Positions 1,008 through 1,352 of a stretch of DNA of 4,106 nt are shown one piece after another. How positions within the stretch are numbered: the stretch's first letter is position 1; the number at the start of each line of letters is the position of its first letter. The DNA is taken from IMG/VR virus record IMGVR_UViG_2740892211_000015, positions 1 to 4,106 of that record; one strand, 5' to 3'. The notes under the pieces were generated by a model. It searched no databases, was not told the origin of the DNA, and saw nothing but the letters and a program-made list of their open reading frames with translations. This DNA is from a virus (lineage: Duplodnaviria > Heunggongvirae > Uroviricota > Caudoviricetes). Made by a program: the position numbers and the translations under genes.

Positions 1008-1352
1008 ATGAAGAAAAAATACGAACTGGTTGTTAAAGGGATAAATAATTACCCGAATAAGATTACTGTTACTGTGGCACTGGAAATTGGTGGGTATCCG
1101 TCACTGTTGTTGCCAGATGTGGCGATTAGTCTTGACCGTACTGAAGATGCCACGCTGGAGTTTTACGAAGCTGAGGCGAAAAAGCAGGCGAAGCAGTTTT
1201 TCATGGATGTTGCTGCCGGGTTATGTGAAGGGGATGGTCCGTTGCCGGAAAAGCGCCCCGTAATTTTAGAGGCGCAGGATGTGTTGATAACCTACAGAGG
1301 AAAACTACCGGGAATAATTACTGGTTCTCTGAAGACTCCACCGCTGGCCTGA
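1008..1352 (+). CDS. Small protein encoded between holin and endolysin; probable DUF1327 (YdfR-like) family, function unknown
   Basis: Good Shine-Dalgarno (GGGGAGAG at 993-1000) before ATG 1008, which lies 4 nt after the holin stop. Same position as ydfR between essQ and rrrQ in the E. coli Qin prophage (from memory). No TM segment; acidic and soluble-looking. Confidence 0.6.
   Translation: MKKKYELVVKGINNYPNKITVTVALEIGGYPSLLLPDVAISLDRTEDATLEFYEAEAKKQAKQFFMDVAAGLCEGDGPLPEKRPVILEAQDVLITYRGKLPGIITGSLKTPPLA

Follow-up and report, generated by a model that had tools for sequence, protein, structure and literature searches.

An optional DUF1327 (YdfR-family) gene between the pinholin and endolysin genes of a lambdoid prophage

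The lysis cassette and its DUF1327 gene

The stretch of DNA analysed here, referred to as the window (4106 bp), is a late region of a lambdoid prophage, and its best match among complete Escherichia coli genomes, in the O145:H28 strain RM12761, is 97% identical across the whole window. Its features are collected in Table 1; a search of Rfam with an E-value threshold of 0.1 returned no RNA family anywhere in the window.

Table 1. Genes and sequence features of the window, numbered from its first nucleotide
Feature	Positions	Strand	Basis or remark
DUF6645 / SASA-esterase-type gene, 3' end	2-637		
Terminator-like hairpin	720-748		
Phage-21-type class II holin (pinholin), 71 aa	788-1003	+	PF04971 'Bacteriophage P21 holin S', E 9e-33; phrog_9876/phrog_20 'holin'
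Shine-Dalgarno (SD) sequence of the DUF1327 gene, GGGGAGAG	993-1000	+	Within the final holin codons; dG -8.6 kcal/mol against the 16S 3' end
Holin stop codon, TAA	1001-1003		
DUF1327 / YdfR-family gene, 114 aa	1008-1352	+	PF07041, phrog_406
Conserved core domain, residues 1-75	1008-1232	+	
C-terminal tail, residues 76-114	1233-1349	+	Linker DGPLPEKRP plus VILEAQDVLITYRGKLPGIITGSLKTPP module
Deletion scar, CCACCG/CTGGCC	1338-1349	+	CCACC microhomology at both sides in locus L029
Endolysin leader, 50 nt	1353-1402	+	Common to long DUF1327 forms (alignment)
SAR-type lysozyme (R), 177 aa	1403-1936	+	PF00959, E 7.7e-24
Strong terminator-like hairpin	2026-2058		15 pairs plus T run; between endolysin gene and Rz
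50-aa ORF	2118-2270		phrog_4493
Rz spanin	2272-2739	+	PF03245, E 8.4e-49
Rz1 lipoprotein gene, embedded in Rz	2492-2677		PF06085, E 1.7e-21
PerC-family regulator gene	3205-3519		
DUF3950 (YlcI/YnfO) gene	3601-3825	-	

The holin has the dual start Met1/Met4 (MYQM); a longer holin reading frame that begins at 710 is unlikely to use the real start, as it crosses the upstream terminator-like hairpin. The endolysin has a Gly/Ala-rich, weakly hydrophobic N-terminus (LSAAVLALIAAGASA; maximum Kyte-Doolittle mean over 19-residue windows, KD19, of 1.78), a triad spacing of E35-x8-D44-x5-T50, and homology to PDB entries 3hde/3hdf (phage 21 lysozyme R) and 4zpu (RrrD). R is separated from Rz/Rz1 by 335 nt, a gap that in related phages holds the ant antirepressor gene instead of the window's hairpin. 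The 50-aa reading frame in the same gap is basic (pI 11.4), has a hydrophobic C-terminal half and a strong SD (dG -13.2), and stops 1 nt short of the start of Rz; its product may be a small membrane protein coupled to the spanin genes. Further downstream, an AT-rich tract (2990-3200) precedes the PerC-family gene, whose homologues in EHEC prophages are known virulence-gene regulators, and the sequence at about 4030-4075 is one that we take to be a lambda-like cos.

The reading frame between holin and endolysin genes runs from ATG to TGA and encodes 114 aa, as a preliminary description of this DNA had it, and the placement between S and R given there is likewise confirmed by the flanking genes, a PF04971 pinholin with the MYQM dual start and a SAR-type lysozyme. 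Membership of the DUF1327 family, at first proposed from the sequence by eye, is established by an HMM search, in which PF07041 matches with an E value of 2.4e-45 and 153.1 bits (cutoff 25) over profile positions 1-92 of 93; phrog_406 is matched at 4e-64, and the DUF1327 motifs YEL...V and [FY]YExxA are present in the core. One complete E. coli genome carries a copy that is 100% identical as DNA and annotated 'YdfR family protein', the name that NCBI's pipeline also gives to the counterpart in RM12761. DUF1327 was the sole match in Pfam, NCBIfam and PDB sequence searches, which gave no NCBIfam model for the protein and no homology to Srd or RapZ. In PADLOC-DB there was no match for the 114-aa protein, for a 176-aa form or for eight partner ORFs described below, the best being weak and partial (E 0.0068).

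That the reading frame is a real gene is indicated by its pattern of substitution. The N-terminal 75 codons give a dN/dS of 0.21-0.29 in comparisons with divergent alleles, in which synonymous sites approach saturation. For 39 close alleles, the variants number 11 synonymous against 20 non-synonymous in codons 1-75 and 11 of each kind in codons 76-112; under neutrality, about 3.3 non-synonymous variants would be expected for each synonymous one. A pseudogene or a chance reading frame is ruled out by dN/dS together with the HMM score. An alternative frame at 1087-1263 (+1 relative to the gene) is one into which some frameshifted DUF1327 variants continue (P0254, P0268-P0272; ...LLPGYVKGM...RKSAP); these are probably pseudogenes or sequencing errors rather than signs of an overlapping gene.

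The maximum KD19 of the 114-aa protein is 1.18, and it is therefore without a transmembrane segment and soluble, as had been stated; it also shows no signal-like N-terminus, no export signal and no hydrophobic segment. The accompanying description of the protein as acidic is weakly true, in that the pI of 5.46 is mild and 15 acidic residues stand against 14 basic ones; the N-domain is net acidic. In composition the gene is foreign to its neighbours, with 46.7% GC and a GC3 of 47%, compared with about 54% GC and 60-67% GC3 in the holin and lysozyme genes.

Near-invariant residues of the core are Y5, L7, V9, V21, G47, L50, Y53, E54 and A57 (alignments A1, A2 and A5). AlphaFold2 applied to the full-length protein predicted the N-domain with confidence and gave the tail no structure (pLDDT below 50 at residues 78-114), and with a more diverse 35-sequence alignment residues 1-77 reached a pLDDT of 88.4 and a pTM of 0.75. 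The predicted fold consists of strands 5-14, 18-27 and 37-43 followed by a helix at 50-71 (beta-beta-beta-alpha). Binding of nucleic acid would be consistent with this modelled fold but is not established by it; the domain does not have the alpha-beta-beta-beta-alpha fold of a dsRBD with a significant structural or HMM match, and BFVD and PDB sequence searches were negative. The tail (residues 76-114) is conserved in sequence, with many near-invariant columns, and is without confident predicted structure.

Placement and optional presence in Escherichia and Shigella

The gene begins 4 nt past the pinholin gene and lies 50 nt upstream of the lysozyme gene. Its SD, rightly called strong in the preliminary description, stands 7 nt ahead of the ATG, and in the window no promoter or terminator of its own was found. 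We surveyed 92 loci, drawn from four phage records, eight species-representative genomes and the best 80 IMG/VR matches. The order of S21-type holin, DUF1327 gene and lysozyme gene occurs in all 92 of these Escherichia and Shigella loci, a count that overstates independence because the IMG/VR sample is biased to near-identical copies. Wherever upstream sequence is present, 7 nt (TAA plus 4 nt) separate the holin stop from the DUF1327 start, and the lysozyme gene follows 45-923 nt downstream unless the contig ended. Co-expression with S and R, which had been read from the placement in the window, is very likely, given that none of the 92 loci departs from this order or from the 4-nt junction.

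The gene is nonetheless optional in cassettes with an S21-type holin: by tblastn, phage records contain such a holin in 434 cases and DUF1327 in 101. In cassettes that are without it (Shigella phage POCJ13 and Stx phage P27; L093 and L094), the lysozyme start occupies the position of DUF1327, and in POCJ13 and P27 this start sits behind GGGGAGAG-TAA-N4-ATG, just as DUF1327 does in the window. A DUF1327-like gene was found by blastn in 3159 of 5426 complete E. coli genomes, in at most eight copies per genome, and the 114-aa form is the common one in phages of the Stx1a, Stx2c, H-19B, BP-4795 and YYZ-2008 types.

This exchange of start sites invites an explanation in cis, in which the insertion would matter by shifting the endolysin gene from the holin-coupled SD to an SD-less leader, thereby lowering or delaying endolysin relative to holin. 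The geometry fits, as R uses the holin-coupled site where DUF1327 is absent, and the 50-nt leader has no recognisable SD (dG -2.3 kcal/mol against the 16S 3' end, equal in the long-form locus L029 and in L003). However, a mere spacer has no need of a coding sequence under purifying selection, the core is conserved where no endolysin gene lies downstream, and in the Qin prophage coupling to R is restored because ydfR overlaps rrrQ by 4 nt. The displacement of the SD is real as an observation, but it cannot explain constraint at the level of the protein, and we regard an effect mainly in cis as rather improbable.

Distant relatives, convergent partner ORFs and the origin of the 114-aa form

The DUF1327 family is small, appearing in only 96 clusters in a profile search of 1.84 billion cluster representatives, and the named sources are Escherichia, Shigella, Salmonella, Pantoea and Cronobacter, with a phage late region as the context in every case. 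A search of one genome per species returned E. coli, E. albertii, E. ruysiae and Shigella together with two metagenome bins, and a tblastn search of the phage collection with the distant member P0191 recovered E. coli forms alone. The two bins, labelled Veillonella parvula and Bacillota bacterium (L009, L011), hold an E. coli-type holin-DUF1327-lysozyme cassette whose proteins are 79-80% and 89-90% identical to the window's holin and lysozyme, and are probably binning errors. The part that defines the family is the N-terminal core of about 75 aa, and the C-termini are mosaic, giving forms of 103, 104, 110, 114, 116, 168-183, 211, 268 and 329 aa; Salmonella members have 168-195 aa. Stand-alone cores of 72-76 aa, 24-45% identical to the window protein, occur in Pantoea, Cronobacter, E. 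coli and metagenome contigs. Two further proteins, P0001 (196 aa) and P0002 (169 aa), contain internal tandem duplications of an N-domain segment, each on one contig, and these may be assembly artefacts or real.

The contexts of ten distant relatives vary widely. Three lie between holin and endolysin genes, three flank lysis cassettes with other holin or endolysin families (lambda-type holin, GH19), three are in tail gene clusters, and one has a context assigned to neither lysis nor tail genes. The gene orders are as follows: in Pantoea, Q antiterminator, core, reverse ORF, lambda-type holin, GH19 endolysin and Rz; in Cronobacter, Rz, core and reverse ORF, with terminase further on; in the Salmonella type (two look-ups), PF16080 holin, 168-aa form, reverse ORF and lysozyme; on an E. 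coli contig, S21-type holin, 72-aa core and reverse ORF; and on a metagenomic contig, GH19 endolysin, DUF2514 spanin, core, reverse ORF and terminase. On three contigs the core stands among tail genes, once behind the tape-measure gene, once between gpM-like and gpL-like genes, and once between gpI-like and gpJ-like genes. DUF1327 is thus always in late operons and often near lysis genes, but the variety of distant contexts shows no fixed link to pinholins, to SAR endolysins or even to lysis cassettes. The preliminary description had named, as grounds for giving up its reading, the lack of a DUF1327 HMM match and homologs scattered outside lysis cassettes; the match is present, and the scattering is found in part.

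These contexts bear directly on the role in lysis regulation or SAR-endolysin handling that had been suggested for the gene, in which the protein would act on the pinholin or the endolysin, delaying triggering or handling the membrane-tethered endolysin, and so set the timing of lysis. The gene order shared by all 92 Escherichia and Shigella loci and by the Qin prophage of K-12 speaks for such a role, as do the translational coupling to the holin, which suggests a fixed stoichiometry, and the Salmonella-type relatives that also lie between a PF16080 holin and a lysozyme gene. However, the proposed targets are membrane-bound or periplasmic and the protein has neither a transmembrane segment nor a signal sequence, so that it does not share the membrane or periplasmic location of antiholins and holin-endolysin regulators such as S21-71, T4 RI and P1 LydB. 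The gene is, moreover, absent from about 77% of phage records with an S21-type holin, its GC3 deviates from that of its neighbours, relatives of the core are found before a lambda-type holin and GH19 endolysin, after Rz and in tail clusters, and the published interactions point to RNase E (PMC13232886). We therefore consider a lysis-regulating function very unlikely, and the gene is better read as an optional extra than as a component of the machinery that bursts the cell.

A further neighbour of DUF1327 is a small reading frame on the opposite strand. In ten of the ten distant contexts an ORF of 70-128 aa ends 10-30 nt past the DUF1327 stop or overlaps its 3' end, and a convergent ORF likewise stands beside every long Escherichia form. 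Pairs of both kinds are found at L029 3001-3739, L097 1226-1765, L095 3001-3545 and L100 3001-3715 and in L102, L103, L110, L111, L113 and L114. These partner ORFs belong to at least seven PHROG families (phrog_2572, 18136, 2411, 1853, 25324, 6806 and 10490) without assigned function, and BLASTP between the classes found no similarity. Their association with DUF1327 is reciprocal. A reverse search of IMG/VR with the phrog_25324-type ORF found a convergent DUF1327 domain in 14 of 14 loci, and one with the phrog_2572-type ORF found it in 74 of 80, where five of the six exceptions had less than 400 nt of flank on that side, leaving 74 of 75 with enough flank; for the two classes pooled, DUF1327 was recovered in 88 of 89 informative loci. 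The pair formed by a 72-aa core and a phrog_25324-type ORF occurs at four different genomic positions. In L029 and L097, minus-strand terminator-like hairpins directly follow the partner stop codon, and no sigma-70-like promoter for the partner ORF was detected in either. In two Salmonella-type loci (L106 3001-3517 and L107 1305-1788) a frameshift splits DUF1327 into overlapping ORFs of 72 aa and 96-107 aa, and the convergent ORF is intact despite it. Outside the short E. coli forms, the DUF1327 core and its convergent ORF look like a mobile two-gene cassette.

The window copy has lost this partner. In L029 an identical N-domain opens a protein of 176 aa, and a convergent ORF of 91 aa (phrog_18136) overlaps the 3' end of its gene; alignment of the window with this locus (A3) shows 469 bp missing between ...GAAGACGCCACCG/ACGG... 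and ...CCCACCA/CTGGCGGGCTGAAGAC... The missing segment comprises the coiled-coil C-terminal module and the convergent ORF, and the 50 nt that precede the lysozyme ATG are common to the window and the long forms. Given the alignment, the scar and the common leader, comparison of the two sequences identifies the 114-aa gene as a deletion derivative without coiled-coil module and partner. The DUF1327 family and the holin-DUF1327-lysozyme arrangement are already catalogued; the pairing with a convergent partner and the 469-bp deletion are new to us.

Two readings of the pair can be considered. In one, the partner, X, would be expressed from the prophage and regulated or neutralised by late DUF1327, which would make the window copy a relic with reduced or no function. 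The convergent ORFs in all distant contexts and beside all long Escherichia forms, the recurrence of one pair at four positions, the return of DUF1327 in searches that start from X, the minus-strand terminators right after the X stop codon and the deletion in the window form are all in keeping with this possibility. Against it, X falls into at least seven families without mutual similarity while the DUF1327 core is constant, a pattern that speaks against a specific protein-protein antidote; neither PADLOC nor toxin families gave a match, no promoter-like site was found for X, and the 114-aa form without a partner is both common and, to all appearance, still under constraint. We judge this two-gene function unlikely as stated; it is compatible with the explanation that we prefer below, and it is the most interesting lead. 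A broader version, which we hold to be possible though doubtful, is that DUF1327 and its hypervariable convergent ORF form a yet undescribed mobile system of lambdoid phages, in which the late protein would be directed at RNase E or RNA and the independently terminated partner would probably be expressed from the prophage, with both acting on each other or on one host target; the widespread 114-aa gene of Stx1a/Stx2c-type phages, that of the window included, would then be a solo derivative that keeps the RNase E-directed half.

A possible function and comparison with known systems

The statement in the preliminary description that the family has no assigned function is nearly true but dated, as K-12 YdfR is reported to bind the N-terminal half of RNase E and to co-purify RNA (Gopel et al., RNA Biol 2026, PMC13232886). 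In a two-hybrid screen baited with RNase G, codons 1-72 of K-12 ydfR turned up three times, and YdfR 1-72 gave two-hybrid signals with both Rne1-597 and Rng, the stronger one with RNase E 1-597; in addition, Strep-YdfR co-purified Rne1-598-FLAG, and the eluate held DNase-resistant nucleic acid (PMC13232886). Proteins that bind the N-terminal domain of RNase E include RapZ and T4 Srd, besides YdfR (group II of PMC13232886). The same study used tagged, overproduced proteins for binding, saw few transcripts changed and growth unaffected on ydfR overexpression, did not show an effect of YdfR on RNase E activity, and states that a contaminating RNA binder could not be excluded (PMC13232886). The window protein matches K-12 YdfR over residues 1-74, the part for which RNase E binding is reported, with 47% identity (E 5e-23), and by analogy it may act as YdfR does, binding RNase E or RNA with a consequence for phage RNA.

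The explanation that we tentatively prefer, at a strength just short of probable, is that the gene is mobile accessory cargo of the late operon, coupled to the holin, whose N-domain most likely targets RNase E and/or RNA and which in this copy is without its partner. On this view the gene derives from a moron and is an accessory among the late genes of lambdoid phages. The Q-dependent late operon would supply its transcript, and it would be translated through coupling to the pinholin gene, a coupling proposed because DUF1327 has taken over the SD and start site that the endolysin uses elsewhere. Its functional part would be the N-terminal beta-beta-beta-alpha domain (residues 1-75), which, judging from the homology to K-12 YdfR, most likely attaches to host RNase E at its N-terminal, catalytic half (and to RNase G) and/or to RNA, and would modulate RNA processing or decay late in infection. 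The window copy would represent a partner-less deletion derivative of a cassette of DUF1327 and convergent small ORF that moves among late-operon positions in phages of Enterobacterales, and a side effect of its position would be that the endolysin gene is left behind the SD-less leader.

Several observations weigh against this explanation. Binding to RNase E is known for K-12 YdfR alone, from overproduced tagged proteins; the small transcript response and the possible contaminant noted above apply here as well (PMC13232886); a net-acidic N-domain is unusual for an RNA binder; the strict adjacency to the holin in Escherichia (92 of 92) could reflect a role linked to lysis; and the context that the protein needs for its action may have disappeared together with the partner ORF. 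The Keio ydfR mutant is listed among the supplementary hits of a screen for envelope integrity (Paradis-Bleau 2014, PMC3879167), which might be taken to favour a role in lysis. We regard this entry as uninformative, as read-through from the resistance cassette into the downstream gene is suspected, and could explain the phenotype through expression of rrrQ, a SAR endolysin gene.

In many Shiga-toxin phages a DUF1327 gene sits in the late operon, on one transcript with stx and the lysis genes. If the protein does act on RNase E at a late stage of induction, the long late transcript could become more or less stable, and with it the output of toxin and endolysin might be affected. For annotation the lesson is that position within a lysis cassette is no evidence of a lysis function, as DUF1327 behaves as mobile cargo.

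Among the closest known systems is K-12 YdfR itself (P76160), which belongs to the same Pfam family as the window protein and is encoded in the Qin prophage, where the order essQ-ydfR-rrrQ given in the preliminary description proved correct and extends to rzpQ. As in the window, ydfR begins 4 nt after an S21-type holin gene, with a SAR-type lysozyme gene downstream of it. The two proteins have unrelated C-termini, YdfR being a 103-aa form with a helical tail and the window protein carrying the KRP...KTPP module, and the overlap of ydfR with rrrQ stands in contrast to the intervening leader of the window. The long lambdoid DUF1327 proteins (176, 183 and 268 aa; phrog_2091, phrog_1085; for example, phage 2H10 gp52) share both the N-domain and the KRP...KTPP module with the window protein, but they extend into coiled-coil or other C-terminal modules and overlap the convergent ORF, whereas the window form stops at ...KTPPLA.

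In function, a possible counterpart is the small phage protein T4 Srd, known to bind RNase E at its N-terminal, catalytic half and to stimulate the decay of host mRNA (PMC13232886). No sequence relationship to the window protein was detected (DUF1327 was the latter's sole match in Pfam), and where Srd is made early in infection by a virulent phage, the DUF1327 gene belongs to the late genes of temperate phages. Lambdoid morons (such as lambda bor and lom, or ant between R and Rz in phages of the 933W type) are likewise optional inserts of deviant base composition, and of the traits by which morons are recognised the DUF1327 gene shows optional presence and atypical composition. Unlike morons, it is without a promoter and terminator of its own and is translationally coupled to the holin gene; the moron-like terminator belongs, in its relatives, to the convergent partner. 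Because of the coupling to the holin, the expression of DUF1327 is that of a late gene rather than of a gene of lysogenic conversion.
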